Source: Eledone cirrhosa
Taxonomy: Eukaryota
Reading direction: 5' to 3'
DNA: 64,000 nucleotides
Assembly: GCA_964016885.1 (NCBI GenBank)
Contig: OZ024740.1
Coordinates: 189,658,001-189,722,000 of the forward strand
Made by a program: the position numbers and the translations under genes. Below, in pieces: positions 1,648 through 64,000 of this stretch (its first letter is position 1; every line of letters starts with the position of its first letter). The notes beneath the pieces were generated by a model. The model was not told where the DNA came from. It saw nothing but the letters and a program-made list of their open reading frames with translations, and made no database searches.

Positions 1648-4479
1648 GTAACTTCGATAGAGTTCAGCAAAGAACTAGCGTTAGAGAAAAATAGAAAGGA
1701 GGGGGAGCTGGTAGATAAGTTAGACGAGGCTATTTGTAGTGGCATCGCAACTGACGTGCTAGCGGCGAGAATGGCATTAGACCATTTCTTCAATGCCAAA
1801 CACGAAGATTGCATTGTCAGAGCTAAGGCGCGTGCGCTGAGAAACGAGGGAACTAAAGCTGTTCGATGAGCCCGCGTGGCGGAGGCGCAGCGTGGTAATA
1901 AAACCACAATTCTGTCTTTGGCGGACCGAGACGGACACGAGATAAGCGATTACAAGCGGATGTGTAAGGCCTTTCGCCAGCACTTTGCTCGGTTGTTCGG
2001 GGAGAGTGGCGGGTCAGAGAGAGTAGCGGATTTCAGTCCCTACCTTGACGGCTTGCCGCGCATCTCGACGGTCGACGCTGAGCGCTGCGAAAGGCCGATT
2101 ACTTCAGCCGAAATTCAGGACGCCCTTGTCGGCTGCATGAGGCGCAAGTCACCAGGCTTGGATGGCCTGCCCTACGAGCTTTACGTAAATATGCCAGACT
2201 TGTTCTCCGAACTCCTCGAAGCACTCTACTGTAACTGGCAGCAGAATGGGAGTATTCCCAGTTCTGTGAGCAGGGGAGTGGTGACGCTGATAAGGAAAGA
2301 CGAGAACAAGAGGGATACATTATACAACTTCAGGCCCATAACTCTGCTCAACACAGAGTTTAAGATTTTGGCCAAGGTGTTAGCAAAGAGATTGGCGTTT
2401 GTCGTCGAGGATTTGGTTGGGGAGGCGCAAACTTGCGCAATCCCAGCCAGGTCCATACACGACAATCTCCTCCTCATGCGATACATCATAGAGAGGGTTG
2501 GGTGTAAACCTGGCTTCGGTGGGGCACTGATCAATTTAGATCAATCGAAAGCATTCGATAGGGTCGACCATCGGTATCTGGAGTTTGTCCTCAAAGCAGC
2601 TGGCTTCGGCCCTGTCTTTAGAAGCTGGATCGTTGCAATGCACAGCGGTACACACTCGGTGGTCAAAGTTAATGGCCACCTCTCGGAACCATTTCGGCTC
2701 TCCCGATCGGTCCGTCAAGGGTGCCCTCTCTCTTCCCTTCTGTACGTATTGACTCTCGAGCCTTTACTGCGGAAGCTGGAGCTGTTGCAGGGCATCCCGC
2801 TCGAACCGGGACGTGGAAAGGCGGTGTCGGCTTATGCGGACGACATCACCGTGATGGTGTCGAACACCTCAGAAATCGAGGTGGTCGGCACCTTATTGAA
2901 AGAATATGAAAGGTTGACAGGAGCCAAACTTAACCCGGAAAAGTCGGTGGGCTTGAAGCTCGGAACCTGGAGAGGCAAGCCCATGCCGTCCAACAGCATC
3001 GTGGGGCGCTGGACGGACGGACCAGTAAAGTTGCATGGGGTTTGGTTCGGACCAGACCTCCAGGTGGAAAAGAATTGGGACGAGGTAACGAGCAGAGGAG
3101 CCAGTCTCACCAAAAAATGGGCTGGGAGGAAGCTATCACTGAAAGGTCGCACAGAGGTGGCGAATGCTTACATCGCGTCCGTCATCTATTACCGCCTAAC
3201 CGTCGTGCCTTGCCCCCGTCCGCGCCTCGTCAAGTTGGAACGGCTGCTCTTCAAATTCTTGTGGAGGGGACAAGTTCCGTTGGTGAGGCGGTCCATCTGC
3301 TGCCAGCACCCTCTACACGGAGGGCTGGGCATGCCGTGGCTAATGATGCGCAGACATGCGTTAAGGCTGCGACATCTCCAGATATTCTGCCTCAATGGTG
3401 AACAGGTGTGGTCGCCGTTTATCAGACGGGCCTTTCCGCAGCTCATTTCTTTGACTGAGCTGCAGTCCTGGGTCAAGAAGAGACCGAGACTGGGGGACTG
3501 GCACCTGGAATGTTGCCAGGCACTCACTGCCCTCTACCAAGCGGGCAATGCGATCAGTGGAACTTCCACTCTCGAGTTTTATAGAGGATTAGTGGTGGGC
3601 AAGTGCGATGACGCACTCGGAGAAGCTTTGGGCCTCGACGAAGTCGAACTGACCAGTCTGTACCGGAGGGCTTTTGAGCCGGGGATGATGGACAATTTCC
3701 AGAAATCCCTCGCTTGGCAGTGCTACCGGGGGGCACTGCCGGTTCGGGATAAACTCTACAGGCACGGAAGTGCTGTCAGACGGACTTGCCCAAGATGCGC
3801 ACAGAACGACGAAACCGTTCTGCACGCACTTGTCCAATGTCCGTACATTACTGACTTGTGGAGTTATGTCGAACAGCTACTGTCGCGTGTGGAACGAATC
3901 CGGTTATCGCCCGAGTCCATAGTGAAGATCGAGCCGCCACCTTCCTTAGGTCAGGAAGAGCAGGACATTTTCCTCTGTCTGGTGGCAGTTGCGAAAGAGA
4001 TTATATGGTGGACCAGGTTGAAAGGACTAACGACAGACACTTTTCTCTTCGGCCAATCCCTCATCAACTTCTTCAAGTTTCACCTGGAAAGGAGGGTGAG
4101 GGTGGAGAGAGAAGTGCTGCCCCCCAGTACATTTTCTAAAAGGTGGGTGAATGTGGCGAGAATGGCTCGTGTGAATGGGCCTACTCTGACCATGCGCCTA
4201 TAGGCTGGCTAACTTGAGGAGAGGGGTGCTCTCCTGGGTGCCCTAGAAGCGCAGGGTGGTTCAGGATTGGTGGGGTACCCGAATCACCCCAGGGTCGTCC
4301 ACCCCCTATCGGGGAATTTATTTTGTTATATTTTGCATAGTTTATTTTATATTTTATATTTTCATTGTTAAATTAGTCTTGCCATTGTGCACTTTTACTC
4401 GACCTTATTGTAAACCCCCACTGTCCCTGTCTTTGTATTGTCCCCTACATGTCGGCCCTTGTGGCTAATAAATGAAATC
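1648..4479 (+). mobile_element. 5'-truncated Tx1/L1-clade non-LTR retrotransposon
   Basis: Long RT ORF, 3' UTR ending AATAAATGAAATC, and an 18-bp target-site duplication with one mismatch (ATTATTATTAGTATTACA 1630-1647 / ATTACTATTAGTATTACA 4480-4497). Confidence 0.9.
1876..4203 (+). CDS. Reverse transcriptase plus C-terminal zinc knuckle (ORF2 portion) of a Tx1/L1-clade LINE
   Basis: Motifs KSPGLDGLPYE, NFRPITLLNTEFKILAK, LDQSKAFDRVDH, VRQGCPLS, AYADD, CPRC...ETVLHALVQC. The same frame continues upstream through a TGA at 1867-1869, which is W in the paralog near 30265. Confidence 0.92.
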   Translation: MAEAQRGNKTTILSLADRDGHEISDYKRMCKAFRQHFARLFGESGGSERVADFSPYLDGLPRISTVDAERCERPITSAEIQDALVGCMRRKSPGLDGLPYELYVNMPDLFSELLEALYCNWQQNGSIPSSVSRGVVTLIRKDENKRDTLYNFRPITLLNTEFKILAKVLAKRLAFVVEDLVGEAQTCAIPARSIHDNLLLMRYIIERVGCKPGFGGALINLDQSKAFDRVDHRYLEFVLKAAGFGPVFRSWIVAMHSGTHSVVKVNGHLSEPFRLSRSVRQGCPLSSLLYVLTLEPLLRKLELLQGIPLEPGRGKAVSAYADDITVMVSNTSEIEVVGTLLKEYERLTGAKLNPEKSVGLKLGTWRGKPMPSNSIVGRWTDGPVKLHGVWFGPDLQVEKNWDEVTSRGASLTKKWAGRKLSLKGRTEVANAYIASVIYYRLTVVPCPRPRLVKLERLLFKFLWRGQVPLVRRSICCQHPLHGGLGMPWLMMRRHALRLRHLQIFCLNGEQVWSPFIRRAFPQLISLTELQSWVKKRPRLGDWHLECCQALTALYQAGNAISGTSTLEFYRGLVVGKCDDALGEALGLDEVELTSLYRRAFEPGMMDNFQKSLAWQCYRGALPVRDKLYRHGSAVRRTCPRCAQNDETVLHALVQCPYITDLWSYVEQLLSRVERIRLSPESIVKIEPPPSLGQEEQDIFLCLVAVAKEIIWWTRLKGLTTDTFLFGQSLINFFKFHLERRVRVEREVLPPSTFSKRWVNVARMARVNGPTLTMRL

Positions 4480-13589: not shown

Positions 13590-16500
13590 CATGGGACTTG
13601 TTGATGGACATAGCAAAGGCAGCACGAAGGGGAAATTGGGTTCTTTTAAAAGAATAGGGTGCATCCACTCCTGATGAAGTAAGAGTTACTGTAGGTAGTA
13701 AAACATCTTCTCATTTTCCATACTCCGACATAATCGTAGCATAAATAATGTGCTGTGATATCCTATTGAAAACAAGGCGTGTACCATTGCAAAGCTTGGG
13801 AGGGGTTATATTCCTGAGAAGCATAACAGGACATCCTTCCTTGAAAGACAAAATATGTTGAGGTAGATGGGAATATCCAATGAATTGAGCAATTCACTAG
13901 GATAATTGACCGCATCATGTGGTTCAACCTTGGTATCAATAAACTTAAAAGTCGTATCATTTCCATGGAAGACTTTCAAGCATTTGGCGATTAAAGCGGA
14001 GACAGGGACATTTGTAGGAGCTAATATAGCCCTCTCACATAACCATGTATGATTACGGTAATTATCTGCCAAGTTGGGAAAGACTGCTGCCTTGAGATCT
14101 TCGACAGCGTTAAACAGACAGCATATATTGTCGAGTGCAATGTCTCCATGCACATCTGAAGGTACTTTGCCGTCGCCAAGAATGAGAAGGTCTTCAGCAA
14201 ATTTTTCAGACACAGTATCGCCATGTAGTTGAACACACATGTTAGTGGTCAGACGAAGTGTTGTTACCTGTTGCCACAATGGAGAATACTTCAGGCAGGC
14301 CCGAACTTGATCCGCTCTGGTCCCCTTTGGAATAACCGGCAAAGTTTGTCGAAAGTCCCCTGAAAGCAAAAGAGTTATACCCCAATGGTCTCCTGACGGT
14401 CTCTAATGTCTTTCAGTGTTCTATCTAAGGCTTCAACAGCTCCTTTGTGAGCCATGGTGCATTCATTCCACACAATCAGTTGGCACCGTTGTAGCAGTTC
14501 TGCTCTTGGACTATCCTTGGTGATGTCACAGATCAGTGTTTCAGCTAATACCAAGTTAAGCGGAAGCTTAAAGGTAGAGTGTGCTGTTTTGCCGCTAGGA
14601 AGTAGTGTTGCTGCAATACCGGATGATGCAACGGCTATTGCGATAAATTCATTCTGTCTAACCTTGGCAAGAAGAAGTTTAGTAACAAAGGTTTTTTCAG
14701 TGCCTCCAGGGGCATCTATAAAGAAGATACCACCCCATCGATGAAATACATAGTCGGTGATAGTTTTGTATGCAAATTGCTGATCAGGAAGTAGTTTTGG
14801 TTCCATTTCAAACACATATCTATCTAGAGTGTTGACATCACAAGATGTTTCTTGGATGATGAGAGTTGGAATTTTATTAGAATCAGTGCGGTGGGTTTGA
14901 GGCAGACCGTATGCTGGCAAGGCATTCCCACCCATAAGGAAAATCTCGTCCTCTATGTCTATAAGCCCTTTATTGTATAAATAATCACTGAAATCTATTT
15001 CTATGTCAGGAAGTCGTAGTTGAGCCTGGTGTAGCAAGTCCTCAGACAGTTGGTTCCGAAACTTCAACCATAATGTGTAGGGATCACACATGTAACATAA
15101 CTGAAGAAGCTTTGCAAAGAGCTCTCTTAGGCTTCCAGCTGAGTGTGATGAAGCGATCTCCACCAAGGTTGCATCCCATCGTGAGTCAACTTTAAGCATT
15201 CCACGAGCCAAACAGGCATCTCTGTATGTAGACCAAACACGATTAGCGTAAGTTCTAAGGTCCTGAAAGCTAGTCGGTCCTTTGACCTCATGCAGTAGCA
15301 TTCGAAGCTAGAAGCACTCGTGTTGATTTGGAGCAATCGTATACACTCGCCCCAAGCAATTAGGGAATTTGATCCCGGGAACTCCAATAACTGGTTGGCC
15401 AGTCTTTCTGCAAATCCATGTTTTTTTTATTCCATGTGTAGTATGATGGCACCTGAGGATACAGCAATGATTTTGCGAAGTCGTCGTATTCGCACAGTTC
15501 GAAAAATCAAGTTGAAGTTGTCTACCTTGGGGTCTGCGCTAATTCAGCGACATTTTTGATGGTATAGTACATCCGTTGACCGTGTTCTAGGTGTACATCT
15601 AATTTTACAATTGAAGGGTGCCTATCATGTATTGGAAAACCAAAGATTCGCCAAAAGGCCTCGCTACTACTTATGTAGCGCCCTACTTGGAATTGCGTTA
15701 CTTCGTCTCTATTGTTTTCGTTGAGTATACCGAACAAAGCAGCGTCAGAACCCTTATTAACATACTTACATATGTATTTGATGCACTTGACGGAGCTGCA
15801 GAATTCAACATTAATGTGTGCTTTGAAAGTACTGAGCAGGAATGGGCAATAGGGAATGATCCATCGGTTGTCAACCTCGCCATTCTCAACCCTTGCCGTA
15901 AAACCTCCCTCTTCACGTAGCCATCATTGCCAGTCTGAGTATCGCGAATAAATTGACGGGGAAATTGTTTAGTACATCTTTTATTGCCTATAACGCATGG
16001 TAAATCAGTTCTTAAACCAGGCCCACGTGGACCATGCACCATATGTGCCCTAACTTTCATGTACATGTCCTTGTCAGTGGAAGGATCGGGTAATTCTGCA
16101 GAGATGATCCTGTCAATGTCGTTAGGACTAACTTTTGCTGTCAACCAAATAAGAATATGAGCATGGGAGAGGCCCCTTTTTTGCCATTCGATTGTGTACA
16201 TATCACATTGAACTGGTCCGAAAACTTCACCTGATTTGATAAGATCCATAAGCTTAAGTAACTTAAGACGGAATACTCTAGCCGCGAGATCATGTCGGCA
16301 TGTGGCGTTCTGACCAGGAAGGAGTTCGCCCTCAATCTCCTTCCAATGGGGTTAAAATTAAACGTTATAAAAAAGTCTGGCCTGCCGTAATGTCGTACAA
16401 TTGTCATGGCTCCCCGTGAAGGTAGATGGCAGAATACATACTTATCCAATACACTCAGGATCTGCATCATTGTTCATTCCATCATGAAGGTGTATGTAAC

Positions 16501-28789: not shown

Positions 28790-31700
28790 TTAAAAACCCT
28801 TCGGTGGGGACCGAAGGGAAAACTTTAACACACTCTGCGGAGAATCCTAATCTTAAAATGATTAGAATCTCCATGGACACACATAAACAGTTAAAAGAAA
28901 AATTTCATAACGACGTAGGCAACCCCTGTGTCAAACCCTATATCCGCATTCCTTTTGAAATGTTCCCCCCCCCCACACACACACATTCCCACCCCAGACA
29001 ACCCCCACCCCGCCTGACATCCCCTCCCCACCAACCATCTCCGTCCCCACCCCACCAGAGACCACCACCCGACCAAACAACCCCTCCAACACCCCTATGG
29101 AAATTGTGCAGCCTGGTCCCCAGGAGACGAAGAGGTGAGCGATTTCTTTTCCTCTTCTTTTAACTTTTCAGCACCAACTAGGCCAATATAAGAGTGGATT
29201 TGTGAATGTACGCGGCCTGGGGATGCCCTGGAAATAGGGTAAACTCTTAAACGAGCTCAGGTCGCACAGTATGGATGTAGTAGCCATTTGCGTGTCCAGG
29301 ATCCAAAGCGAGCGACAACTGGCCCCCATCTTCGAAGATTTTGAGATCTACGCATCTCTCTGTCAACCGGGAGGTGGGGTGGAATTGCCGTTTTGCTGCG
29401 GAAACACCTGGACCTCGTAACACAGACGGTACATCTGGACCCGGAGGGTCGACTGGTGGTCCTAGACGTTGACGGTAGTGAAGGTGGAGCCTTCACGCTG
29501 GTGGCCGCATATGCCCCATTCGGCACACCGCGGCCAGATTTCTTCAAACGTCTAGAGACTTTTCTGGGAACTTTCCGCTCCCTACTGTTAGTGGGGGACT
29601 GGAATGGAATCCTAGATGCACGTTGGGACTATGTGGGAGCATGTCCAGATAGAGTGTGTGTGTGTGTGTGGGGGGGGGGGGGGGGTGTTAACAGCCTCAA
29701 ACAGTTAATCGGCCGATTTGACCTGGCCGATAGATATCGACTAGATTTTCCGACTGCGCCACTGTGGACGTGGACAAAAAATCAGCGGAACATCTAGATC
29801 GTACCTAGATAGGGTTCTAATTAGCTGTCCACAAATGTTCATGGTTGCCTATTCAGATCACAAATTAGTGACATGCTTAGTCAACCTTGACAAAACCCAT
29901 AGTCAGGACCCGGCTACTGGAAGCTGAACTTGTCGTTACCGACATGCATAGCCTAGAGTAGACGGATTAGCACTTTAGTTAAGCAGCACTTGACGGGGTC
30001 CATTGTCAACAACAGATGGTGGTACTCACTCAAGACGGCAGTTAGATTAGACTCGATAGGTTTTAGTAAAGAATTAGTGTTAGATAGAAATAAGATCGAA
30101 AAGGAACTGATAGATAAAATAGAAGAGGCACTTAGGAGTGGGAATGTAGCCAGCGTGCTAGCGACGAGAACGGCCTTGGACCCGTTCTTCGACGCAAAGC
30201 ATGAAGGCTGCGTTGTCAGAAGCAAAATACGTGCTCTGGGAAACGAGGGAAAAAGCTGTTAGCTGGGCCCGAATGACGGAGGCGAAAAGTGGCAACAAGT
30301 GCACGATTTGGTCTTTAAAGGAGCAAGACGGACGCGTGATATGTGAGCCGAAGCAAATGAGCGCGGCCTTTCAGCGGCACTTTGTTCAACTGTTCGGGCA
30401 GGGCGGCGCGCCAGGTGGGGCTATGGATTTCGGTTTGTACCTCGACGGCCTACCGCGACTCTCGGACAGCGAGGCGAAGTTCTGCGAAAGGCCGATTTCG
30501 GCCGTAGAGATAGGGGACGCGCTGAGCCAATGCGGCAAACGCAAATATCCAGGTCTCGACGGTCTACCCTACGGATTTTACGTAGCAATTCCGGACTTGT
30601 TTTCCGGTCTCCTGGAAGCGGTCTACTGCAACTGGCAACAGAACGGGAGAATTTCCCAATTCTGTGACCAATGACATAATCACGTTAGTCAGGAAGGACG
30701 AGAACAAGGGGCATGACATAGGCAACTTGCGGCCCATAACTCTGCTCAACACAGAATTACAGATTTTGGCCAAGATGTTGGCAAAGAGGCTGGCGCTTGT
30801 CATCGAAAACCTGGTGAGAGAAGTGCAGACAGCGCAATCCCGACCAGGTCCATACACGATAACCTCCACCTCATGCGATACATCATAGAGAGTACAGGGT
30901 GTAAACCCGGCTTCGGTGGGGCCCTGATAAACTTGGATCATTCTAAGGCTTTCGATAGGGTTGACCATCGTTACCTGGATGCGGTGGTCGAGGCGGTAGG
31001 CTTCGTTCCGTATTCAGGGGCTGGATTGCTGCAATGCACAACAGTAACATCTGCTCAAGGGTCAAGGTAAACGGCTACCTCTCGGAGCCGTTCTATATCA
31101 CGCTATCCATCCGACAGAGATGCCTTCTCTCCTGCCTTCTGTACGTACTGACTCTCGAGCCAGTACTGCGGAAGTTTGAGCTATTGCAAGGTATCCCTTT
31201 GGAACTGGGACTGCGAAAAATCGGCGTCAGCCTACGCCGACAACGTGACAGTAATGGTGTCGAACCCCTTGCAAATCGGAGAGGTCGGCGCCTTACTGAA
31301 GGAATACGAAATGTTCACAGGAGCGAAGCTGACCCGGGACAAATCCGTCAGTTTGCAACTCGGAACGTGGAGAGGCAAACCGATGCCTTCCGATAGCGTC
31401 GTCGGACGCTGTATGGAAGGACTGGTAAAGCTGCTCGGGGTCTGGTTTGGTCCGGACATCCAGGTGGAGAAGAACTGGAACGAGGTGACGGCCCAGGTGC
31501 TTGCCCTCATCCAGAAGTGGGCCGAGTGCAAACTATCCTTGAAAGGCTGAGTGGAGGTAGCGAAACTTTTATAGCGTCCGTCATCTACTACCGCTTGATC
31601 GTCGTGCCTTGTCCAGCCAAAACGCTCACCAAAATGGAGAGCGCGCTCTTCCATTTCCTTTAGAAGAAACGCGCATCTTTGATGAGAAGATCCATCTGCT

Positions 31701-32731
31701 ACCAACACCCTTCAAACGGAGGGATGGGGATGCCGTGGCTGACGATGCGCAAACACGCGCTCAGGCTGTGGCACCTCCACGTATTCCTCACCGGACAACC
31801 GGTGTGGGCCCCGTTCGTGGGGCGTGCCTTCCTACGACTCGTCTCGCTGACCGAGCTGCAATCCTGGGTCAAAAAAAGACCGAGGAAAATGGGCGACTGG
31901 CACAACTAATGTGCTCAGGCGCTCACAGTCCTCTGGCAAAAGGACCCGGCGATCAGTGGAGACTCCACTTCGACATTCTATAGAGGGTTGCTCTGCAGCA
32001 GGTGCGACAACGGGCTCGGAGAAACTCTAGGCGGAGAGGAGGAGGAACGGCCAGTCTGTTCGGCAGGACGTTCCGCCCGGGACCAATGGACCACTTCAAA
32101 AAGTCCCTGGCCTGGCAGTGCTACCGGGGAGCTCTACCAGTTCGAGACAAGCTCTACAGACACGCCGCCCTGGTAGGGACCCTTCGAAAAAGATTTGTTC
32201 GAGATGCGTGCGCGACGAAGAAACCGCCGCGGACGCATTTGTACACTGCCCGGGCGTTACCGAGGGAGAGGCGGTTTTCCTATGTGTTATGGCTATGGTG
32301 AAAGAGGTTATATGGTGGACGAGGTGAAAAGGGCTGAGATCAGACACCTTTCTCTTCGGCGAGCAACTGATTCGTTTTTTCAAATATCATTTTGGAAGAA
32401 GAGTCAGGATAGAGAGAGAGGTGCTGTACCCCAGCAAATTTTATGTGGGTGAATGTGGCAAAGATGGCCCGAATGGTTGGGCCTTCTCTCTATATAAGCC
32501 TCTAGGTTGAGGAAAAAGAGGAAGAGAGGAAGGGAGTACTCACACTTGGTGCTCCATGAGGGTTGTACATTTTTTCGGGGTGTGTACAACCTCTGTGTAA
32601 CGCCTCCCCCCTATTGGAGAGTTCAATTGTTATATGTTATTTTATTAATAGTTTTATTTTCATATACCGGAATGTAAACTCCCGATTTGTATTTGTCCCC
32701 TTATTTTGTGCCCTTGTGGCTAATAAATAAA
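28790..32731 (+). mobile_element. Decayed Tx1/L1-clade LINE (APE endonuclease, RT, zinc knuckle)
   Basis: GFVNVRGLG (~29196), LDPEGRLVVLDV...AAYAP, LVGDWN, YSDHKLV, PGYWKLN, KYPGLDGLPY, KAFDRVDH, AYADN; frameshifts and stops; (ATCT)n on both sides. Confidence 0.9.
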
Positions 32732-33578: not shown

Positions 33579-34214
33579 TAAAAAACCTATATTTCAATCG
33601 TCTGCACCGTACGGCTTCGTTCCCACCAAAAAATACTGATTACAAATTATTAATCAGTATTTAGGTCTTACGAGATCTCCTCACCAAGCTAGTCTTGTCT
33701 TAAGAAGAAACGAGCGAAAGTTCAATTCATCTACAGAGAAATATAAAGCCCACAATTTCCATGCTACCGCATTTTGTTAGTGTAGCAACCAGATGTGAGA
33801 TACCATATAATTAAAGTGCTGTCATGTCGAGAGCATGACGGACTAAGCAGTGAGGGTGAATTGGCAGAAGGATGCTAAAAAATAGTACAACGTACATCGT
33901 CAATCACAATATTTAACGAACCATTCAAATCAAATTACCTATATATATATATATAAACGGAAAAAATGAAACGAAATTTCATTTCTCACTCCTAGTACGG
34001 CTGTTACTTAAATATAAGTATGTATACGTACATACATATATGCTATACAGACGTACAATAGTATGTATACATATATGCACACATATATATATCTACGTAT
34101 GGATTCACCGAACATTTATTATAATGCTCGGAGTGTTTGTTAACAAACATCCCGAATTAAGCCGTACAGTGTCTAGCAACCATCGTTGCTCATTTGTTCA
34201 ACACTGACAAAGGA

Positions 34215-34257
34215 ACGCTGTACTAGTTTCAAACTTATTAGCTATCGTCAGCAACGT
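34215..34257 (-). ncRNA. Minimal type I hammerhead ribozyme
   Basis: ACGTTG-CTGACGA-T-AGCT(aata)AGTT-T-GAAA-CTAG-TA-CAGCGT. Confidence 0.8.
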
Positions 34258-34329
34258 ATACCATCCTGCCAGATGATTGAACGTCTGAAAGTATATACTT
34301 TCCTTATGCATATACGCACAGGAAGGTAT

Positions 34330-34372
34330 ACGTTGCTGACGATAGCCAATAGGCTTGAAACTAGTACAGCGT
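34330..34372 (+). ncRNA. Minimal type I hammerhead ribozyme
   Basis: ACGTTG-CTGACGA-T-AGCC(aata)GGCT-T-GAAA-CTAG-TA-CAGCGT; predicted GUA cleavage after 34366. Confidence 0.85.
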
Positions 34373-34759
34373 TCCTTTGTCAGTGTTGAACAAATGAGCA
34401 ACGATGGTTGCTAGACACTGTACGGCTTAATTCGGGATGTTTGTTTACAAACACACCGAGCATTATAATAAATGTTCGGTAAAAACGATACGTACATATA
34501 TATATGTGTGCATGTATGTATATATATATACATACTACCGTACGTCTGTATACATATATGTATGTACGTATACATTCTTATATTTAAGTAACAGCCGTAC
34601 TAAGAGTGAGAAATGAAATTTAGTTTCATTATTTCCGTTTATCGTTTTCGGTACCCGGGCCCATTAACTCTCTCGATATGCATATTAGGCTGCTCAGCCG
34701 TTATCATGCATAAGGAAAGTATATACTTTCAGACGTTCAATCATCTGGCAGGAAGGTGT

Positions 34760-34802
34760 ACGTTGCTGACGATAGCTAATAAGCTTGAAACTAGTACACC
34801 GT
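34760..34802 (+). ncRNA. Minimal type I hammerhead ribozyme
   Basis: ACGTTG-CTGACGA-T-AGCT(aata)AGCT-T-GAAA-CTAG-TA-CACCGT. Confidence 0.8.
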
Positions 34803-35005
34803 TCCTTTGTTAGTGTTGAACAAATGAGCAACGATGGTTGCTAGACACTGTACGGCTTAATTCGGGATGTTTGTTTACAAACACTCCGAGCATTATAATA
34901 AATGTTCGGTGAATCCATACGTACATATATATATGTGTGCATGTATGTATATATATATACATACTACTGTACGTCTGTATACATATATGTATGTACGTAT
35001 ACATA

Positions 35006-35047
<42 letters not shown>

Positions 35048-35414: not shown

Positions 35415-35505
35415 TAAATAAAGTAATTGTGGTAAGCAACCTGATGGACCATAACGCACCAGAGTACTCAATACTTAAGGTAGTAGAGTGGGAAATAGGA
35501 AAAAA
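35415..35505 (-). mobile_element. ~90-bp terminal fragment of the PLE pseudo-LTR between (TA)n tracts
   Basis: Reverse complement matches 46323-46400 (CCCACTCTACTACC.TAAGTATTGAGTACT.TGGTGCGTTATGGTCCA). Confidence 0.75.
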
Positions 35506-43752: not shown

Positions 43753-43840
<88 letters not shown>

Positions 43841-43848
43841 CCAATAAG

Positions 43849-43942
43849 ACCCCGACGGCTGAGCTCAAGCCGTTTCGACGGCTAATTCTGGACTAAATGA
43901 AAATTTATCCTGGTATTTAAATAGCCGAGCTTCTCAAGGGGT
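43849..43942 (-). ncRNA. Type I hammerhead ribozyme, U3-A8 variant (inverted pLTR copy)
   Basis: Reverse complement of 46221-46314. Confidence 0.75.
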
Positions 43943-46220
43943 AATTCAATATATGGTCAAAGTGATTGTCACAAGGATTGTCACAAGTTAGTAGTAATTC
44001 TGTGATGGCAAATTAGTGGGGGAAGGGGTAGCTAAACCTGCCAGTAGGAGAAAAGGGGGAGGGGTTGGAGTAGACCCATTCATGCGTTAGTGGTGCCGGC
44101 TACAGCTAGGCGTGAGGTCAAAGAAGATACTAGGAAGGGGGAGGGAGAGGAAGACGAAACGGTAAGTGGAACAATGAAGGGTAAAAATATACTGAGAGTG
44201 AAGCGAATAAATGTAAAGAAAAAAAAAGCAATGTCTACGACCTAAGTCTCTCGCTATTGCTAGGCTAAATAAATAAATAAATAAATAAATAAATGAATAA
44301 ATAGATAAAGAAATAAAAAAATTATAAATAAATAAACTAGGTGGGTCGGAATAGGTAAGGACCCTTTTAAGAGGTATAAGTACGTATATCATACAGTGAC
44401 GGGTCAACAAAGGGGGGTCAAAATACTAAAGAAACTACCACGAAATAATTAATAAAGGTTTCTACCCCGGGCACAAGGCCAGCAACCACCCAGTGCAGAA
44501 AAGTAAACTAGTACGAAATAATAATTCAGAGTCCCGAAAAAAATATACTAATGCTAACTCTAAGGGTACCGCCACGCTACACAAGTTCTTATACAAGCTA
44601 CATGAAAGTTCGTACGAAGTAAAAGTAGAATACGGAAAATTAATTCAGAATCCACCCCGCCCAAAAGAAAAGTGAAGAAAGAAAAACTGAATAAACGAGA
44701 AATAAAGCAGAGATGCCAGCAAAAAATATAGAAGGACACCTCCAACAAAGCTTATATAGGATTAACCGCATGTGACTTCAAGACACGGCTATACCATTAC
44801 AGACATACCTTCCGAAACCCGGTCCGGCGTCACGCCACTACACTTTCGGGCTACATATGGGACCTCAAGGACAACCACATCACCTATGATCTCACTTGGA
44901 GATTACTGTCCAGAGCCAACTCTTACACGAGAGGACGCCGTCCGTGCAATTTATACTCGGAGGAAACATTACAAATGGTGTTTTCAACGGACCAACTCCT
45001 AAACAAGAAAGATGAACTGGTTACTGCATGTAAACACAGATTGTGTAGGACTTACCTCGCCCTCAAACCCCATAATGACCCAGGGAGGGGGGGGGGTAGA
45101 CTAGGGCTATAACACCCCACTTGCCGATTTTGTATTGGGTAACCCCTACTTGCCAAGGGAGACGTAAGATCTTCTTTTATATTCTTTTATCGCTTCCTCT
45201 ATATTTCATTCTTCCCCCATCCCTCCCTAGTCCTTCTACCCCAGTTCTTTTTCTTTGTCGGCGTCTTTTTCTCGCCCACCCGAAGTAGCGCCTCGGCCCC
45301 TTGTAGCCTCAGTACCCCCACCCTTCCCTAGTCTATGTTAGATTTGGCGGACTCCGCTTTCTATAGCAGTTGTGTTAGACCTCGGATACTTGCCCCCTTA
45401 TCCGACACTCTCCCTTTTTTCCGTGCCTTCTATATTTCTTAGTGGCATCTCTGCTTTATTTCTCGTTTATTCAGTTTTTCTTTCTTCTCTTTTCTTTGGG
45501 GCGGGGTGGATTCTGAATTAATTTTCCGTATTCTACTTTTACTTCGTGCGAACTTTCATGTAGCTTGTATAAGAACGTTTGTAGAGTGGCGGTACCCTTA
45601 GAGTTAGCATTAGTATATTTTTTAGGGACTCTGAATTAATATTTCGTACTAGTTTACTTTTCTAAACTGGGTGGTTGCTGGCCTTGTGCCCGGGGTAGAA
45701 ACCTTTATTAATTATTTCGTGGTAGTTTCTTTAGTATTTTGGCCCCCCTTTGTTGACCCGTCACTGTATGATATACGTACTTATACCTCTTAAAAGGGTC
45801 CTTTCCTATTCCGTCATACCTAGTTTATTTATTTATAATTTTTTTATTTCTTTATATTTTTATTCATTTATTTATTTATTTATTTAATTATTTATTTAGC
45901 CTAGCAATAGCGATAGACTTAGGTCGTAGAAATTGCTTTTTTTTCTTTACATTTATTCGCTTCACTCTCAGTATATTTTTACCCTGCATTGTTCTACTTA
46001 CCGTTTCAACTTCCTCCCCCTCCCCCTTCCTAGTATCTTCTTTGACCTCACACCCAGCTGTAGCCGGCACCACTAACGCATGAATGGGTCTACTCCACCC
46101 CCTCCCCTTTTTCTCCTACTGGCAGGTTTAGCTACCCCTTCCCCCACTAATTTGCCATCACAGAATTACTACTAACTTGTGACAATCCTTGTGAAAATCA
46201 CTTTGACCATATATGGAATT

Positions 46221-46314
46221 ACCCCTTGAGAAGCTCGGCTATTTAAATACCAGGATAAATTTTCATTTAGTCCAGAATTAGCCGTCGAAACGGCTTGAGC
46301 TCAGCCGTCGGGGT
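46221..46314 (+). ncRNA. Type I hammerhead ribozyme, U3-A8 variant, upstream pLTR
   Basis: ACCCC-TTGAGAA-GCT-CGGCTA(37-nt loop)TAGCCG-TC-GAAA-CGGCT(tgagctc)AGCCG-TC-GGGGT; predicted GUC cleavage after 46309. Confidence 0.78.
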
Positions 46315-46499
46315 CTTACTGGTTCCTATTACCCACTCTACTACCCTAAGTATTGAGTACTTTGGTGCGTTATGGTCCACCTGGTTCCTTACCACATTTC
46401 CTTCATTATCTAGCTCCTATTCCCGTAGTAGAGCACTTTCCGACTCTACCACGCCGTATCCAGACTTTTCCGCTAAGCTCAATTTCTTTCACCCGCGCC

Positions 46500-48639
46500 A
46501 TGCGAAAACACAACATCGACTTCTCTACCAAGAACATCCCAATCCCACCGAAAAAACTTTACCTTCGGATGCTCACGCAAAAAATCGATCTATTTGCAAA
46601 AAGACTTAGATGGAGAACTTTCTTCAACAACATATATTGCGACAATCAGGACTTCGGCACCAAGGAGAGATTCGGATTTATTACCTACAAATCTCCCCCC
46701 CCCCCCTCTGACCCTTCGAGAATGACCTCTACCAACTGGTCAAGAACATCAATTTCAAACCCAGACACAACCGATTCCTACAAAAACTCCGTAGCAACTT
46801 AACAAAGTATGATAACACCAATGACATGGTGCATTCGGATAAAACTGGGAACCTATACTTTGTCAACCCTGACAGATACCACACACTGATCAGGAGCAGC
46901 CTAAACTCCACCTATAAAAAGGCCAACCACTCATGCATCGAGGACATAAATCGAGATGGGCAACAAATTACCTCCAGCCTCGGGGTCGCCGACCGCACGG
47001 AACCCCTAGACCCACGGACACCCTACTTCACACTGACGGACCACAAATCCGATTTCGACCGTAAACCCTCTATCAGGCTTATTAACCCAACGAAGTCTGA
47101 CATAGGGAGAATCAGCAAAAAAATCCTAGACCGCGTGATACCAAAAGTCAAGCAACACGCCCGACTTAGCCTATGGATCAACACCCAGGAAGTAATCTCA
47201 TGGTTCAGCAATATGGAGGATAAACAAGACACTAAATTCATCCAGTTTGACATATAGAGCTACTATGCTTCAATCACCTTACCGCTACTTACTGCTGCCT
47301 TGGACTTCGCCGAAGCACTTGTGCCCGTCACCGACCAGGAAAGAAAAATCATCCTCCACGCCAGGAAGACAGTCTTACTCTTTGACAACTCCAAATGGAT
47401 AAAAAGTGCTCCCGACTCACCCTTCGACGTCAGCATGGGCGCTACGGATTCGGCGGAGGTCACAGATTTTATATGATTATTCCTAATAGCCAAACTCACC
47501 GATACGTTTCCTGCATTCGGTGGTGGATTGTACCGTGATGATGGGCTCCTTACCCTTAAAGGCTACAACCCCAGTAGTTCAGATCGGGTCCGGAAACAAT
47601 TAATCAGCTTCTTCCGCGACTGGGGATTTAAAATAACCCTACAAACGTCCCTGACCCGAGTAAACTTCCTGGACGTTACCCTCGACCTCGAAAACGACCT
47701 GTATTACCCATACAGAAAACCTAATGACAACCTGCACTACATCCAACGCCGTTCAAACCATCCTAGGAACATCACCAACAACCTGGTCAAACACATCTCC
47801 CTCCGCATATCCCGTTTGTCAACTAATGAGCAGATATTCGATGAACATGCGCCTTATTACAACCAGGCTTTAAGCGGAGTGGTTTCCGGGAGGAAATATC
47901 CTACTGTCCAGCTCCCATTAGCGGAACAAGCAGGCGACACCGCCGGTCACGCAATGTAACATGGTTCAATCCTCCCCACAACGCAGAGGTGACAACTCCC
48001 ATCGGGAAAATATTCTTTAGGCTCATTGAAAAACACTTCCCACTACAACACCGCTACCACAACATAATTAACAAACATACCATCAAATTCCCTTACAGCA
48101 CTACACCAAACTTCGCACAAAACATCGTCTCCTCCAACAACAACAAACTCAACCCAGATGGAAGAAATAACCTAAATAGCAGTGGAGAGCCGACCAGGAG
48201 GTGCAACTGTCCTGATAGATCCATTTTCCCCCTCGACAACAGATGCAGAGATTAATGTGTTCTACCAGTGCAACGTGAGGACGGACACCTCCAACAAAGC
48301 TTATATAGGATTAACCGCATGTGACTTCAAGACCCGGCTATACCAACACAGACATACCTTCCGAAACCCGCCCGGCGTCACGCCACTACACTTTCAGACC
48401 ACATATGGGACCTCAAGGACAACAACATCACCTATGATCTCACTTGGAGATTACTGTCCAGAGCCAACTCTTACACGGGAGGACGTCGTCCGTGCAATTT
48501 ATGCTCGGAGGAAACTTTACAAATGCTGTTTTCAACGGACCAACTCCTAAACAAGAAAGATGAACTGGTTACTGCATGTAAACGCAGATTGCGTAGGACT
48601 TACCTCGCCCTCAAACCCCATAATGACCCCGGGGGGTAG
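46500..48639 (+). pseudogene. PLE RT plus GIY-YIG endonuclease ORF with a few frameshifts and stops
   Basis: MRKHNIDFSTKNIPIP, SDKTGNLY, RLINPTKSDIGRISK, FIQFDI, MGATDSAEVTD, YRDDGL, VNFLDVTLDL, SNHP, TWFNPP, CNCPD..FPLDNRC, YIGLTACDFKTRLYQH, CNLCSEE, LLNKKDELV. Confidence 0.92.
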
Positions 48640-49409
48640 ACTAGGGCTATAACACCCCACTTGCCGATTTTGTAATGGGTAACCCCTGCTTGCCAAGGGA
48701 GACGTAAGATCTTCTTTTATATTCTTTTATCGCTTCCTATATATTTCCTTCTTCCCCCATCCCTCCCTAGTCATTCTACCCCAGTTATTTTTCTTTGTCG
48801 GCGTCTTTTTCTCGCGCACCCGAGGCAGCCCCTCGGCCCCTTGTAGCCTCAGTACCCCCACCCTTCCCTAGTCTATGTTAGATTAGGCGGACTCCGCTTT
48901 CTATAGCAGTTGTGTTAGATCTCGGATACTTGCCCCCTTATCCGACCGCTTCCCCTTTTTTCCGTGCATTCTATATTTCTTCTTGGCATCTCTGCTTTAT
49001 TTCTCGTTCATTCAGTTTTTCTTTCTTCTCTTTTCTTTGGGGCGGGGTGGAATCTGAATTAATTTTCCGTATTCTACTTTTACTTCGTACGAACTTTCAT
49101 GTAGCTTGTATAAGAACTTTTGTAGCGTGGCGGTACCCTTAGAGTTAGCATTAGTATATTATTTTCGGGACTCTGAATTATTATTTCGTACTAGTTTACT
49201 TTTCTGCACTGGGTGGTTGCTGGCCTTGTGCCCGGGGTAGAAACCTTTATTAATTATTTCGTGGTAGTTTCTTTAGTATTTTGGCCCCCCTTTGTTGACC
49301 CGTCACTGTATGATATACGTACTTATACCTCTTAAAAGGGTCCTTTCCTATTCCGTCCCACCTAGTTTATTTATTTATTATTTTTTTAATTCTTTATCTA
49401 TTTATTCAT

Positions 49410-49448
<39 letters not shown>

Positions 49449-49772
49449 GCCTAGCAATAGCGAGAGACTTAGGTCGTAGAAATTGCTTTTTTTTCTTTAC
49501 ATTTATTCGCTTCACTCTCAGTATATTTTTACCCTTCAATGTTCTACCTACCGTTTCGACTTCCTCCCCCTCCCCCTTCCTAGTATCTTCTTTGACCTCA
49601 CGCCTAGCTGTAGCCAGCACCACCAACGCATGACTGGGTCTACTCCACACCCCTCCTATTTTTCTCCTACTGGCAGGTTTAGCTACCCCTTCCCCCACTA
49701 ATTTGCCATCACATAATTACTACCAACTTGTGACCAATCCTTGTGACAATCATTTTGACCGTATATGGAATT

Positions 49773-49866
49773 ACCCCTTGAGAAGCTCGGCTATTTAAAT
49801 ACCAGGATACATTTTCATTTAGTCCAGAATTAGCCGTCGAAACGCCTTGAGCTCAGCCGTCGGGGT
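49773..49866 (+). ncRNA. Type I hammerhead ribozyme, U3-A8 variant, downstream pLTR
   Basis: Same as 46221-46314 with one stem III mismatch (CGCCT). Confidence 0.72.
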
Positions 49867-49949
49867 CTTACTGGTTCCTGTTACCCACTCTAAGTATTGA
49901 GTACTTTGGTGCGTTATGGTCCACCTGGTTCCTTACCACATTTCCTTCG

Positions 49950-51671: not shown

Positions 51672-54072
51672 GGAGGTGAGTTTTATTGTAGCACAATAAA
51701 GTAATGCAAATATCGGATAAGTAGCACTCCACAGTTTATAGGACTGGAGTATAAATAATATAAGATTAGTTAATCTTAATATTATTAAGAATAATATACT
51801 TGATCTATTTGAGCACCATAATCTAAAAATTGAATTTGAAAACAACGTCAAACTAGCTGACTTCCTGGATATAACCCTTAATCTTGACACCGGCCTATAT
51901 TACCCTTAGCATAAAGGCAATGAGAATCTAAATTATGTTAATTTTAAATCTAACCACCCCATTAACGTTAAAAATGCTATAGTCAGTAATGTTGAAAAAA
52001 AAATCTCAAATCTATCATCTAATAAAGCTATCTTCGACGCTAATGCCAATTATTATAATAATGTGCTTTCAAAGCCTTTCATCCTGATAAAATTAAATTC
52101 AGTAAAGAAACCAATCATCGAAGGACTTATAGTAAAATAGTTAGTTATGAACATTCCAACAACTTAAATAAAAGACCTAGATACAAAAATATGATTTGGT
52201 ACAACGCTCCTTTTTCTCTATCTATTTCTAGTAATATTCCTAAACTAATTTTTAGGGCCTTAGATAAATGCTTCCCTCCCTCGCATATATATATTAAGAT
52301 CTTTAACAAACACAATCAAATTCTCTAAATTCCATCACTTCCAACATCTCTAGCATTATCTGTAAACATAATAATAAAATATTAAATAATAAATTATATC
52401 CATCCAACACTGACCGTCATAATAATAGCAATAGTAAACCCGACGTCAATGTTAACTCTAAGCTAGATTCAGTAAATTTAAATACGACGTCAAACGTAAC
52501 TTTGTCGAATGTTCATAACACCAATCTAAATCAGGAACAATAGTACCTATCGTATATAATTTCTCCAATCCAATTCCTTCTATAAATAATACTAGGTCGC
52601 GTGTTAATAACTTTGGTAATTTCTCTAATCGTAATTGTAATTGCCCTGTTAGAACTAAATGTCCTCTTAATAACCAATGTCTTGATAACAATTTAATGTA
52701 TGAATGTCAGGTTATAACTGGTACTAATTATTTTACCTATTTTGGTTCCATTTCCACTTCCTTTAAAGCAAGATTTTATAATCACAATTAGTTTTTTAAA
52801 TACCAACTCAAAAGAACTAACACGGCACTCTCAGAACCCATATGGTCCTTGGATCTCTTGGAGGAAAGTTTGCAACGCCTCTCCTTACCAGAATTCCTCC
52901 CTATCCAGAACATGTAATCTCTGCCAAGCCGAGAAAGTTACGATTATCTCTAATTTTAATTCTATAATAAATAGACGTACGGATGTATTTTCGCTCTACT
53001 AGCATAAATCCCATAGAACTTTCCATAAAGTATAAGGCTAATATCTCAATACCTAATTAGTTTAAAATCTTTTTCTCAAACGCTTTTATATCTTTACAAA
53101 TATACCCATCTTTCTACCTTATTTCAGTATATTATATTATACAATTTACTCATTCTATGTCGTTAGCGGTCCCCTATTTTTCTTCTTTTTAAATTTCTTC
53201 CTTTTCTCTTTTTTAATTTCTAATCTTTAATCTGTAACTCTTACTTCTCAATTACTTCTTAATTCATATTATTACTCATATAGCATGTTTCTTATATTCT
53301 TGGCCATACAGGCTATATTCTTAATATATACTAATATTACCATTAGTAAATTTTGTAAACATATATATATTTTTTTGACGTTATATATTTTCTTCCTTAA
53401 ATTTTCTTCATTCTTCTCTCCTTCCGTGCTCGTATTAAACCTATTATTTACTTTTTCATGTTACAATGCAAAAAACAAACTTAAACCCTAACTAATTCCT
53501 CTAAGTTCATAATTCATTTAATTTCTTCTTCTTCATTCACCTTAAATCCTTAATATTTGAATTTTAATAATACATATTAATAAATTCCTTTTCGCACATA
53601 TTATTAAACCCTTCAATATATAAACGTTAAATAAATACTATTCTTAATTCCTTTTTCTTTAATCATAAACATCAACATTCATAAACCTCATTAACTTGTA
53701 ATTTCAACATTTTTAGATTTTTTATTATCTCACAACGGTTTTTAAAATTTTCTCTGTGAGACAGTGTTTCTCAGTATTAAAGACTATCTCTCTCTCTCAC
53801 TCATTTCTGATCCTCTCTCACCCTTCCTTCTTATTTTCCTCTCCCGTCATCCTTTTTTTCTTTCTTAACTTTTCCTTACTCCTTCTCCTTTTTTCTCAAT
53901 CTCATATATGCATCTTACTTTATTTTTCATATGTTGATTTAACACGTCACTGCTCGCAAGAGTTATTAAAGCTTCATATCATGTCTCCCTATTTTATCTG
54001 ATGAGAACGCAAATGTCATCCCATGATGATATTTCTTTTTGAAATGCGCATAATAAAATACATGGAACTCTT
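51670..54072 (+). mobile_element. Decayed AT-rich Penelope-like element (RT C-part, EN, ~1-kb 3' UTR, HHR) between (TA)n tracts
   Basis: ADFLDITLNLDTGLYYP, YVNFKSNHP, MIWYNAPFS, NCNCPVRTKCPLNNQC...TYFGS..SFKARFYNH, CNLCQAEK. Confidence 0.85.
53990..54060 (+). ncRNA. Type I hammerhead ribozyme at a PLE 3' end
   Basis: TATTTTAT-CTGATGA-GAACGC-AAATGTCATC(ccat)GATGATATTT-CTTTTT-GAAA-TGCGCA-TA-ATAAAATA; perfect 8-bp stem I, palindromic stem III. Confidence 0.85.
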
Positions 54073-57737: not shown

Positions 57738-57800
<63 letters not shown>

Positions 57801-57802
57801 TA

Positions 57803-60265
57803 TGAATATAGACATAGAATATTCGAAAATATTCTGTATGTTTATAATAAACATTTTGAAGACCTAATCGCTATAGAATAGAATACGTCACGTATTACAA
57901 TTAGATTCTCGATAAAAGCAAGGGAAGTAATCTACGCGTTTCATTCTCGTTAGAAATCATCAGGACTACATATCCAGTGCTTTTATCGAGAATGACACAG
58001 CTAGAGACTTATAGAATACTTAGCTGTGTACAGGAACTGGTTTGAAAGAGCGGTTGCCGGTCCGGCAGAAATTAGAAATTGGAATAAATGCTCTGAAATA
58101 GCGATATATATGTGAATATAGACATAGAATATTCGAAAATATTCTGTATGTTTATAATAAACATTTTGAAGACCTAATCGCTATAGAATAGAATACGTCA
58201 CGTATTACAATTAGATTCTCGATAAAAGCAAGGGAAGTAATCTACGCGTTTCATTCTCGTTAGAAATCATCAGGACTACATATCCAGTGCTTTTATCGAG
58301 AATGACACAGCTAGAGACTTATAGAATACTTAGCTGTGTACAGGAACTGGTTTGAAAGAGCGGTTGCCGGTCCGGCAGAAATTAGAAATTGGAATAAATG
58401 CTCTGAAATAGCGATATATATGTGAATATAGACATAGAATATTCGAAAATATTCTGTATGTTTATAATAAACATTTTGAAGACCTAATCGCTATAGAATA
58501 GAATACGTCACGTATTACAATTAGATTCTCGATAAAAGCAAGGGAAGTAATCTACGCGTTTCATTCTCGTTAGAAATCATCAGGACTACATATCCAGTGC
58601 TTTTATCGAGAATGACACAGCTAGAGACTTATAGAATACTTAGCTGTGTACAGGAACTGGTTTGAAAGAGCGGTTGCCGGTCCGGCAGAAATTAGAAATT
58701 GGAATAAATGCTCTGAAATAGCGATATATATGTGAATATAGACATAGAATATTCGAAAATATTCTGTATGTTTATAATAAACATTTTGAAGACCTAATCG
58801 CTATAGAATAGAATACGTCACGTATTACAATTAGATTCTCGATAAAAGCAAGGGAAGTAATCTACGCGTTTCATTCTCGTTAGAAATCATCAGGACTACA
58901 TATCCAGTGCTTTTATCGAGAATGACACAGCTAGAGACTTATAGAATACTTAGCTGTGTACAGGAACTGGTTTGAAAGAGCGGTTGCCGGTCCGGCAGAA
59001 ATTAGAAATTGGAATAAATGCTCTGAAATAGCGATATATATGTGAATATAGACATAGAATATTCGAAAATATTCTGTATGTTTATAATAAACATTTTGAA
59101 GACCTAATCGCTATAGAATAGAATACGTCACGTATTACAATTAGATTCTCGATAAAAGCAAGGGAAGTAATCTACGCGTTTCATTCTCGTTAGAAATCAT
59201 CAGGACTACATATCCAGTGCTTTTATCGAGAATGACACAGCTAGAGACTTATAGAATACTTAGCTGTGTACAGGAACTGGTTTGAAAGAGCGGTTGCCGG
59301 TCCGGCAGAAATTAGAAATTGGAATAAATGCTCTGAAATAGCGATATATATGTGAATATAGACATAGAATATTCGAAAATATTCTGTATGTTTATAATAA
59401 ACATTTTGAAGACCTAATCGCTATAGAATAGAATACGTCACGTATTACAATTAGATTCTCGATAAAAGCAAGGGAAGTAATCTACGCGTTTCATTCTCGT
59501 TAGAAATCATCAGGACTACATATCCAGTGCTTTTATCGAGAATGACACAGCTAGAGACTTATAGAATACTTAGCTGTGTACAGGAACTGGTTTGAAAGAG
59601 CGGTTGCCGGTCCGGCAGAAATTAGAAATTGGAATAAATGCTCTGAAATAGCGATATATATGTGAATATAGACATAGAATATTCGAAAATATTCTGTATG
59701 TTTATAATAAACATTTTGAAGACCTAATCGCTATAGAATAGAATACGTCACGTATTACAATTAGATTCTCGATAAAAGCAAGGGAAGTAATCTACGCGTT
59801 TCATTCTCGTTAGAAATCATCAGGACTACATATCCAGTGCTTTTATCGAGAATGACACAGCTAGAGACTTATAGAATACTTAGCTGTGTACAGGAACTGG
59901 TTTGAAAGAGCGGTTGCCGGTCCGGCAGAAATTAGAAATTGGAATAAATGCTCTGAAATAGCGATATATATGTGAATATAGACATAGAATATTCGAAAAT
60001 ATTCTGTATGTTTATAATAAACATTTTGAAGACCTAATCGCTATAGAATAGAATACGTCACGTATTACAATTAGATTCTCGATAAAAGCAAGGGAAGTAA
60101 TCTACGCGTTTCATTCTCGTTAGAAATCATCAGGACTACATATCCAGTGCTTTTATCGAGAATGACACAGCTAGAGACTTATAGAATACTTAGCTGTGTA
60201 CAGGAACTGGTTTGAAAGAGCGGTTGCCGGTCCGGCAGAAATTAGAAATTGGAATAAATGCTCTG
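57803..60265 (-). mobile_element. Tandem array of ~8 apparently identical 310-bp units, each with a hammerhead ribozyme (candidate non-LTR retrozyme)
   Basis: TGAATATAGACATAG recurs at 57803, 58113 and every 310 bp thereafter; flanked by (TA)n; non-coding. Confidence 0.9.
57927..57969 (-). ncRNA. Minimal type I hammerhead ribozyme (first of 8; others start at 58237, 58547, 58857, 59167, 59477, 59787, 60097)
   Basis: Minus strand GTAGTC-CTGATGA-T-TTCT(aacg)AGAA-T-GAAA-CGCG-TA-GATTAC, enclosed by a perfect 16-bp helix (57905-57920 / 57978-57993). Confidence 0.88.
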
Positions 60266-60347
60266 GTATATATATATATATGTAAAAGTTCTATTTATAT
60301 TGTTGGGATAAAACAAGCAAATATTTTTATAACTGATATAAAGCACT

Positions 60348-63183: not shown

Positions 63184-63337
63184 TTGTAATAAAATGAAAA
63201 CGAAATTTCATTTCTCACTCTTAGTACGGCACTTACTTAATAAATTCAGGCTGTTCAGTTTGTTTGCAAACGAACAAAGCGGGCGTTATAATAAGCGTCC
63301 GCTAAACTGATACGTACATATACGTATGTGTACCTGA

Positions 63338-63388
<51 letters not shown>

Positions 63389-63821
63389 TGCTACTGTACG
63401 TCTGTATACATATATGTATGTACGTATACATACATACTTACATTTAAGTAAGTGCCGTCCTAAGAGTGAGAAATGAAATTTCGTTTTCATTTTATTATAA
63501 CTTATCGTTCTCGGTACGCCTGGCCGAACTCACTCGATATGCAAATTAGGCTGCTCAGCCGTTAATTTTCATAAGGAAAGTATATACTTTCGAACGTTCA
63601 ACCATCTGGCAGAAGGCTATACGGTGCTGATGATAGATAACAAGCTTGAAACTAGTACATCGTTCCTGTGTCAGTGTTGAATAAAAAGGTGACGTGGTTG
63701 CCTTAACAACGTACGGCATAAATTCAGGCTGTTCAGTTTGTTTACAGATGGAAAAAATTGGGCGTTATAATAAGCGTCCGCTAAACTGATACGTACATAT
63801 ATGTCTGCGTACCTGTATGTA

Positions 63822-63916
<95 letters not shown>

Positions 63917-64000
63917 ATGCTACTGTACGTCTGTATACATATATGTATGTACGTATACATACATACTTACATTTAAGTAAGTGCCGTACTAAGAGTGAGA
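63184..64000 (+). mobile_element. Diverged relative of the 33953-35008 HHR repeat: short inverted piece plus tandem ~480-bp units running off the window
   Basis: AAATTCAGGCTGTTCAGTTTGTTT at 63242 and 63721; 63184-63240 is the inverse of ~63445-63501. Confidence 0.85.
63621..63663 (+). ncRNA. Minimal type I hammerhead ribozyme
   Basis: ACGGTG-CTGATGA-T-AGAT(aaca)AGCT-T-GAAA-CTAG-TA-CATCGT. Confidence 0.75.

Follow-up and report, generated by a model that had tools for sequence, protein, structure and literature searches.

A high-copy non-coding retrozyme family in Eledone cirrhosa whose insertions carry the tail signature of Penelope-like elements

The window analysed here, a stretch of 64,000 nucleotides of the Eledone cirrhosa genome, contains at 33953-35008 an island composed of a 359-bp inverted arm and a direct arm of 690 bp (1.6 times the 430-bp unit), flanked by (TA)n tracts (Table 1). 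The first-pass annotation had described this island as an inverted copy joined to about 1.6 tandem 430-bp units within (TA)n, with hammerhead ribozymes at 34215 on the reverse strand and at 34330 and 34760 on the forward strand, a diverged relative at 63621 and no ORF. The motifs lie where claimed and the unit coordinates agree; the hammerhead copies are spaced 430 apart, and the longest ATG-initiated ORF is 66 aa in the island and 60-84 aa over the island and three arrays. The left end of the island is the far and the right end the near of two fixed 3' ends that recur throughout the family (see below). The three copies in the island are 3-4% divergent from one another and their changes are private, which marks an old, decaying insertion. 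Any target-site duplication around insertions of this type would be masked by (TA)n, as is described also for Penelope-like elements (PLEs) that insert into such tracts (PMC8557442).

Table 1. Features of the island and of related elements in the window (cleavage sites in the island predicted from hammerhead topology)
Feature	Position	Strand	Basis
Left (TA)n target tract	33940..33955	.	sequence
Inverted arm, 0.83 unit, 5'-truncated; 3' end at the far site (unit position ~275, ~56-nt tail) at (TA)n	33953..34311	-	
Tail between both fixed 3' ends, with a small hairpin; within the island on the inverted arm only	33953..34009	-	
Type I hammerhead copy 1; one G.U wobble in stem II; predicted cleavage between 34221 and 34220	34215..34257	-	
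7-nt head-to-head junction joining two 5'-truncated arms, without (TA)n	34312..34318	.	
Direct arm, 1.6 units; 3' end at the near site (unit position ~216-220), tail-less, at (TA)n	34319..35008	+	
Type I hammerhead copy 2; predicted cleavage after 34366 (GUA)	34330..34372	+	
Full 430-bp unit, predicted cleavage site to cleavage site; 36.7% GC	34367..34796	+	
TA-rich long inverted repeat inside the unit, lying just upstream of the near 3' site	34488..34571	+	
Type I hammerhead copy 3, in which helix I has a U.C mismatch; cleavage predicted after 34796	34760..34802	+	
Right (TA)n target tract	35009..35045	.	sequence
Broken Hydra-type PLE between (TA)n tracts; tail (~75 nt) on the direct arm, none on the inverted arm	43838..49948	+	
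Lineage E array, eight near-identical 310-bp units; type I hammerhead, palindrome ACGCGT	57796..60283		
Lineage B insertion with hammerhead at 63621-63663 (+); runs past the window, with three more hammerheads there	63193..64000	+	

The hammerhead of the island's lineage (lineage A) consists of a 6-bp helix I, the core CUGACGA/GAAA and a 4-bp helix II above a U.U pair, while helix III is the palindrome ACUAGU, which cannot close in a monomer and forms a duplex of -6.8 kcal/mol. It has the features of type I hammerheads (core CUGANGA, GAAA and UH, helix I of ~6 bp, helix II of ~4 bp, short palindromic helix III), and one such motif is present in each unit, in at least two consecutive units, as is characteristic of retrozymes. 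Self-cleavage is predicted from the motif and would require pairing of two hammerheads; PLE hammerheads that depend on dimers are described in PMC4209133. The base of helix II, usually G10.1-C11.1, is G-C in lineages C and D and U.U in lineages A and B, the latter a trait shared with the cleaving axolotl variant HHR_Amex2 among non-LTR retrozymes (PMC7229834). Searches with the Rfam hammerhead models gave no match at the gathering threshold or at E up to 10, just TA-rich miRNA noise. The 430-bp unit folded as linear RNA is predicted to be branched (z -7.3), and the units of lineages A-D folded as circles yield a similar branched structure (z -7.9 to -11.9, 25 shuffles each), with the hairpin of the long inverted repeat at 34488-34571 kept across all four lineages. 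Further hammerhead-like motifs, with a long helix II and TGCGCA or TATGTA as helix III, are seen in the window at 53998, 55070 and 57456; other PLE families (L234-L261, L116-L129) have similar motifs at their 3' ends.

A 31-letter hammerhead pattern has 27,156 exact matches (13,989 + 13,167) in the 3.0-Gb genome, which is far above chance: the reversed-pattern control gave 0 + 0. A second, looser pattern added 19,408 matches, the first 100 listed being of lineages D and E, which brings the two patterns to ~46,000. Arrays range from 1 to 25+ units. Lineage A has units of 420-435 bp; lineage B (~500 bp) shares the 31-letter pattern and is 77-85% identical to A. Lineage C (470 bp) was reached through yet another looser hammerhead pattern, and both C and D (467 bp) are 68% identical to A across ~220 bp. 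Lineage E (310 bp) resembles A-D in the hammerhead only; its array in the window is very young, has two ends of its own (unit positions 140 and 166) and carries a hammerhead like that of an intact PLE described below. The island is, therefore, one insertion of a genome-wide, high-copy non-coding family.

This family is a non-LTR retrozyme, that is, an abundant but otherwise ordinary new member of a class already described in animals (Cervera & de la Pena 2020, PMC7229834) and proposed to consist of non-autonomous PLE derivatives (Li, Clavereau & Pollet 2026, bioRxiv 10.64898/2026.07.22.740005). As in the described elements, for which unit sizes of 150-450 bp (51-972 bp in the 2026 survey) and a GC content under 50% are given, the units are short, low in GC and tandem, each with one type I hammerhead and no ORF; PLEs co-occur, the predicted circle is highly self-paired and the weak palindromic helix III needs dimers. 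The Eledone elements differ in that tails and inverted arms are the rule and the target is (TA)n. In word searches, the main texts of PMC7229834 and bioRxiv 10.64898/2026.07.22.740005 yielded neither tails nor inverted arms for retrozymes; their supplements may bear on the point.

We examined the covariation that the first-pass annotation had seen among the window copies. The putatively compensatory stem II change AGCC/GGCT exists genome-wide in just one copy, one of those in the window, compared with 54 copies that have the 5' change alone and 74 that have the 3' change alone; the number of double changes expected by chance is 54x74/27,156 = 0.15. We rejected stem II covariation inside lineage A on this count. 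The second stem II variant, AGCT/AGTT, is a wobble with one side changed, and the annotation had omitted a U.C mismatch in stem I at 34760 and an A.G mismatch in stem II at 63621, so that two of the four window hammerheads contain a pair-breaking mismatch. Its stem I change from U.G to G.U is a genuine lineage difference (U.G at 60 loci, G.U at 45 and A-U at 9 among 308 copies). Between lineages the picture is different: 11 of 14 hammerhead pairs show two-sided change, a number reached in 0/500 shuffles and compared with at most 3 in slid controls, in an alignment of 16 non-independent rows from about five lineages; across the whole unit, 22/84 consensus pairs change on both sides. Together with the branched fold shared by lineages A-D, this covariation points to RNA-structure selection acting on the source lineages. 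The proposed selection for ribozyme structure thus holds between lineages, whereas the variants originally cited for it are private decay in an old insertion. We set aside a comparison suggesting selection on single copies (1.3% variation in the core, 2.2% in stems and other sites, 308 copies), because many of the loci had been chosen by an exact core pattern.

The arrays end at two fixed sites downstream of the predicted cleavage site, both into (TA)n. The near and far sites lie at unit positions ~216-220 and ~275 in lineage A, ~295 and 354 in B, ~226-231 and 300 in C, ~234 and 303 in D, and 140 and 166 in E. Both outward ends were recognisable in 59 of 155 elements; 57 of these combined a near with a far end, two were near/near and none was far/far, a count that includes one segmental-duplicate pair and lineage C loci whose selection query was biased towards the near end. 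An initial pass, before we refined the end motifs, had given 33 versus 2. The rest of the 155 elements displayed the near end alone (39), the far end alone (37) or neither (20). In the subset chosen solely by the hammerhead pattern, pairing was mixed in 28/28 cases (one a segmental duplicate). Among 20 loci of lineages D and E, both ends were found in 14 and were mixed in all 14, three of the loci having been glimpsed beforehand and one end (L308) being imprecise. The 5' junctions, by contrast with these fixed ends, are scattered over the unit; arms run through the predicted cleavage site, and no pile-up of 5' junctions was seen there when we looked for one.

Partial tandem copies with an inverted 5'-truncated arm, a tail at one end and two internal 3' ends downstream of the hammerhead, in an AT-rich target, are what is described for PLE insertions (PMC3846280, PMC8557442, PMC11167929), the single-end tail of tandem/inverted insertions being a trait noted in PMC8557442 and PMC3846280. 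For a purified PLE, reverse transcription is reported to start at two internal sites bounding the tail, with both target strands extended (PMC11167929). The retrozymes differ from PLE insertions in lacking coding capacity, in the length of the tail (56-70 nt in A-D and 26 in E, versus 30-40 in PLEs according to these sources) and in that their ends are 220-300 nt past the predicted cleavage site. Moreover, the one-of-each pairing is near strict in the retrozymes, whereas the in vitro PLE reactions revealed no difference in start site between the strands (PMC11167929). Two fixed ends, one of each per two-armed insertion, amount to the PLE tail signature and give direct evidence, at the level of sequence, for PLE-type insertion. 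The PLE tail was reportedly defined in a paper of 2006. No end-pairing counts were found in the literature searched, on which supplements and that paper may bear; what is new here is the end-pairing rule and an intact candidate helper PLE.

The same ends bear on whether the family could be a satellite or MITE-like element whose spread occurs as DNA, by unequal crossover or fold-back, the hammerhead being a relic. In favour of this, the inverted arms and the TA target are MITE-like; the periodic shared variants of old long arrays are typical of later tandem duplication, and single genomic copies decay, stems included. The arms, however, are unequal, their 5' truncation is scattered, they stop at two different fixed sites and the RNA helices covary between lineages. 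We consider this account scarcely credible.

The first-pass annotation had likened the island to an autonomous PLE at 43838-49948. The likeness in layout stands, but the PLE is not autonomous: it is frameshifted, matches an intact PLE protein across three reading frames and has a longest open stretch of 181 aa. It has no sequence homology with the retrozyme unit, and Pfam did not recognise the PLE pieces of the window. Its terminal repeat, at 46215-46310 and 49770-49866, has a fold resembling a hammerhead, in which helix III is full, the helix II region very long and the core deviant. Elsewhere in the window, at 13806-16351 and at 1870-4203 and 30053-32164, are Helitron helicase/Rep pieces and non-LTR RT copies (Pfam PIF1, Helitron_like_N, RVT_1).

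An intact young Hydra-type PLE family is present in the genome, with a 713-aa ORF and many stop-free copies (L312-L353, e.g. L329 805-2946), so that the autonomous PLEs expected to co-occur with retrozymes are found. The protein has RWR, DKT, a CxCx5C linker, and GIY-YIG at its C terminus, and the element has hammerheads and a (TA)n target; these motifs, by which we place it, fit the Hydra clade as described in PMC8557442. With the ORF as query, Pfam returned only a sub-threshold GIY-YIG match and a PDB search nothing useful, while Atlas placed it in animal clusters with GIY-YIG/RVT_1 members. The element has two ends ~70 nt apart on (TA)n, and these were mixed in 4/4 full-length copies with both outer ends visible (12 fetched). 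Its hammerhead agrees with that of lineage E at 25/28 positions, ~11 of which are universal core, and is unlike that of lineage A. The family also has a 2-kb 3' UTR built from (TA)/(TG) simple repeats, and many fields of apparent microsatellites may be due to it. The Hydra-type PLEs of this genome (clade described by Craig et al. 2021) share the (TA)n target and the end rule with the retrozyme, and are likely its helpers rather than the element itself. Like the Eledone family, non-autonomous Chlamys elements such as MRC1 are described as non-coding, with multicopy head-to-tail insertions attributed to PLE machinery; they differ in having 3' sequence in common with autonomous partners and in mostly lacking canonical hammerheads (Craig et al. 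2021).

Could the unit merely be the pLTR of some autonomous PLE, with arrays that are its 5'-truncated stumps? Layout and tail are PLE-like, PLE coding pieces lie within 13/78 pattern-picked loci, and retrozymes are derived from pLTRs in the account of bioRxiv 10.64898/2026.07.22.740005. Yet arrays of up to 25+ units show the unit closing on itself, and what follows the far end is the next unit or (TA)n; at its fixed ends the unit never runs into a PLE ORF. The neighbouring PLE pieces that we inspected were mostly separate insertions with hammerheads and ends of their own and (TA)n in between, three direct joins being the exceptions. PLE families adjoining retrozymes (L170/L162 type, L113-L131, L232-L261) had their own termini and no homology to the unit, and the common (TA)n target accounts for their position beside retrozymes. 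In the sampled PLE loci, which represent few families, we found no pLTR homology to lineages A-D and weak homology to E; against the terminal repeats of these PLEs, lineage A has no homology beyond whole inserted copies. This differs from Xenopus, where 24 of 57 retrozyme families are reported to match a known repeat (21 of 22 matched elements being PLEs; the 2026 survey). The pLTR reading is largely refuted and, in our judgement, very improbable.

The three direct PLE-retrozyme joins without (TA)n (L077 5580-9375, L127 and L154 5583-7050) are at non-fixed positions and could represent template-switch chimeras; deletions are possible too. L077 has a direct internal join and natural outer ends, one of the PLE and one of the retrozyme, which would suit a single chimeric event and also a deletion; the PLE side of the L154 join is not a natural end. 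Tiny PLE end fragments (a hammerhead end plus tail) are also seen alone in (TA)n, often adjoining retrozyme copies (window 35417-35501, L077 9380-9600, L083 1080-1250).

The identity of units within arrays bears on the template. Full units of both arms of young D and E arrays have 0 substitutions (18, 12 and 9 units), and loci differ from one another (median of 4 substitutions in E), which fits copying round one circular monomer. In lineage C, 8 substitutions can separate the arms, and old lineage A arrays contain higher-order duplication that arose later; a monomer circle would therefore not be the sole template or route of growth. In L157, a lineage A array, two unit types alternate (ABAB). 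This array, L064 and L066 have shared variants with period-2, -5 or -3 patterns, attributable to dimer templates or to later higher-order duplication.

Given the scattered 5' junctions without pile-up at the predicted cleavage site, the template would be either a circle or an uncut multimer. PLE mobilisation might thus use uncleaved linear multimer transcripts, with the ribozyme kept for another step or for a parasitic RNA life. The arms spanning the predicted cleavage site would suit this, as would the differing units of lineage C arms and the ABAB array, and hammerhead mutants are reported to be without effect on PLE insertion in vitro (PMC11167929). A one-unit bottleneck is suggested instead by D and E loci in which every unit of the two arms carries variants that other sampled loci lack (4 such variants in L295+L296, compared with only two other units, and 2 in L301); the same pattern could result from assembly polishing or from a source array that was homogeneous. 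We regard multimer templates as unlikely, though worth serious weight.

The earlier idea of a non-autonomous, PLE-mobilised retrozyme is well supported: the arrays are dispersed and lack ORFs, their 3' ends are fixed and lie on (TA)n, and layout and tail are of PLE type. Most probably, judging from these signatures, the family is copied into (TA)n microsatellites by the RT and endonuclease of Hydra-type PLEs. Tandem copies would be transcribed, two hammerheads would pair by means of the ACUAGU palindrome and release unit-length RNA by cleavage, and this RNA would be circularised. The PLE protein, probably as a dimer, would nick both strands of a (TA)n tract and prime cDNA from each nicked strand, one at the near and the other at the far internal site; both cDNAs would extend for variable lengths and then be joined head to head. 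Counting against this explanation are the lack of an Rfam match, the U.U at the helix II base in A/B and the absent terminal homology between lineage A and PLEs, as well as reports that only 1/9 retrozyme dimers tested cleaved (bioRxiv 10.64898/2026.07.22.740005) and that hammerhead cleavage is dispensable for PLE insertion in vitro (PMC11167929). More tentatively, and with slightly more doubt than confidence, we suggest that the one-of-each end rule, found in five retrozyme lineages and the intact PLE, reflects a general PLE mechanism in which one dimer uses one RNA (in retrozymes a circle) at two fixed sites, one per nicked strand, and builds both arms in one event.

The case for PLE mobilisation of retrozymes has so far relied on the hammerheads that both have, on co-occurrence and on pLTR phylogeny. 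In Eledone, the PLE tail signature is borne by the insertions themselves, many of them, and the genome also contains an intact candidate helper whose target and end rule are the same. Both the movement of retrozymes and the building of inverted arms by PLEs become testable in vitro with a small RNA. If the general mechanism holds true, the young structured RNAs of 310-470 nt would be minimal substrates for reconstituting retrozyme mobilisation.
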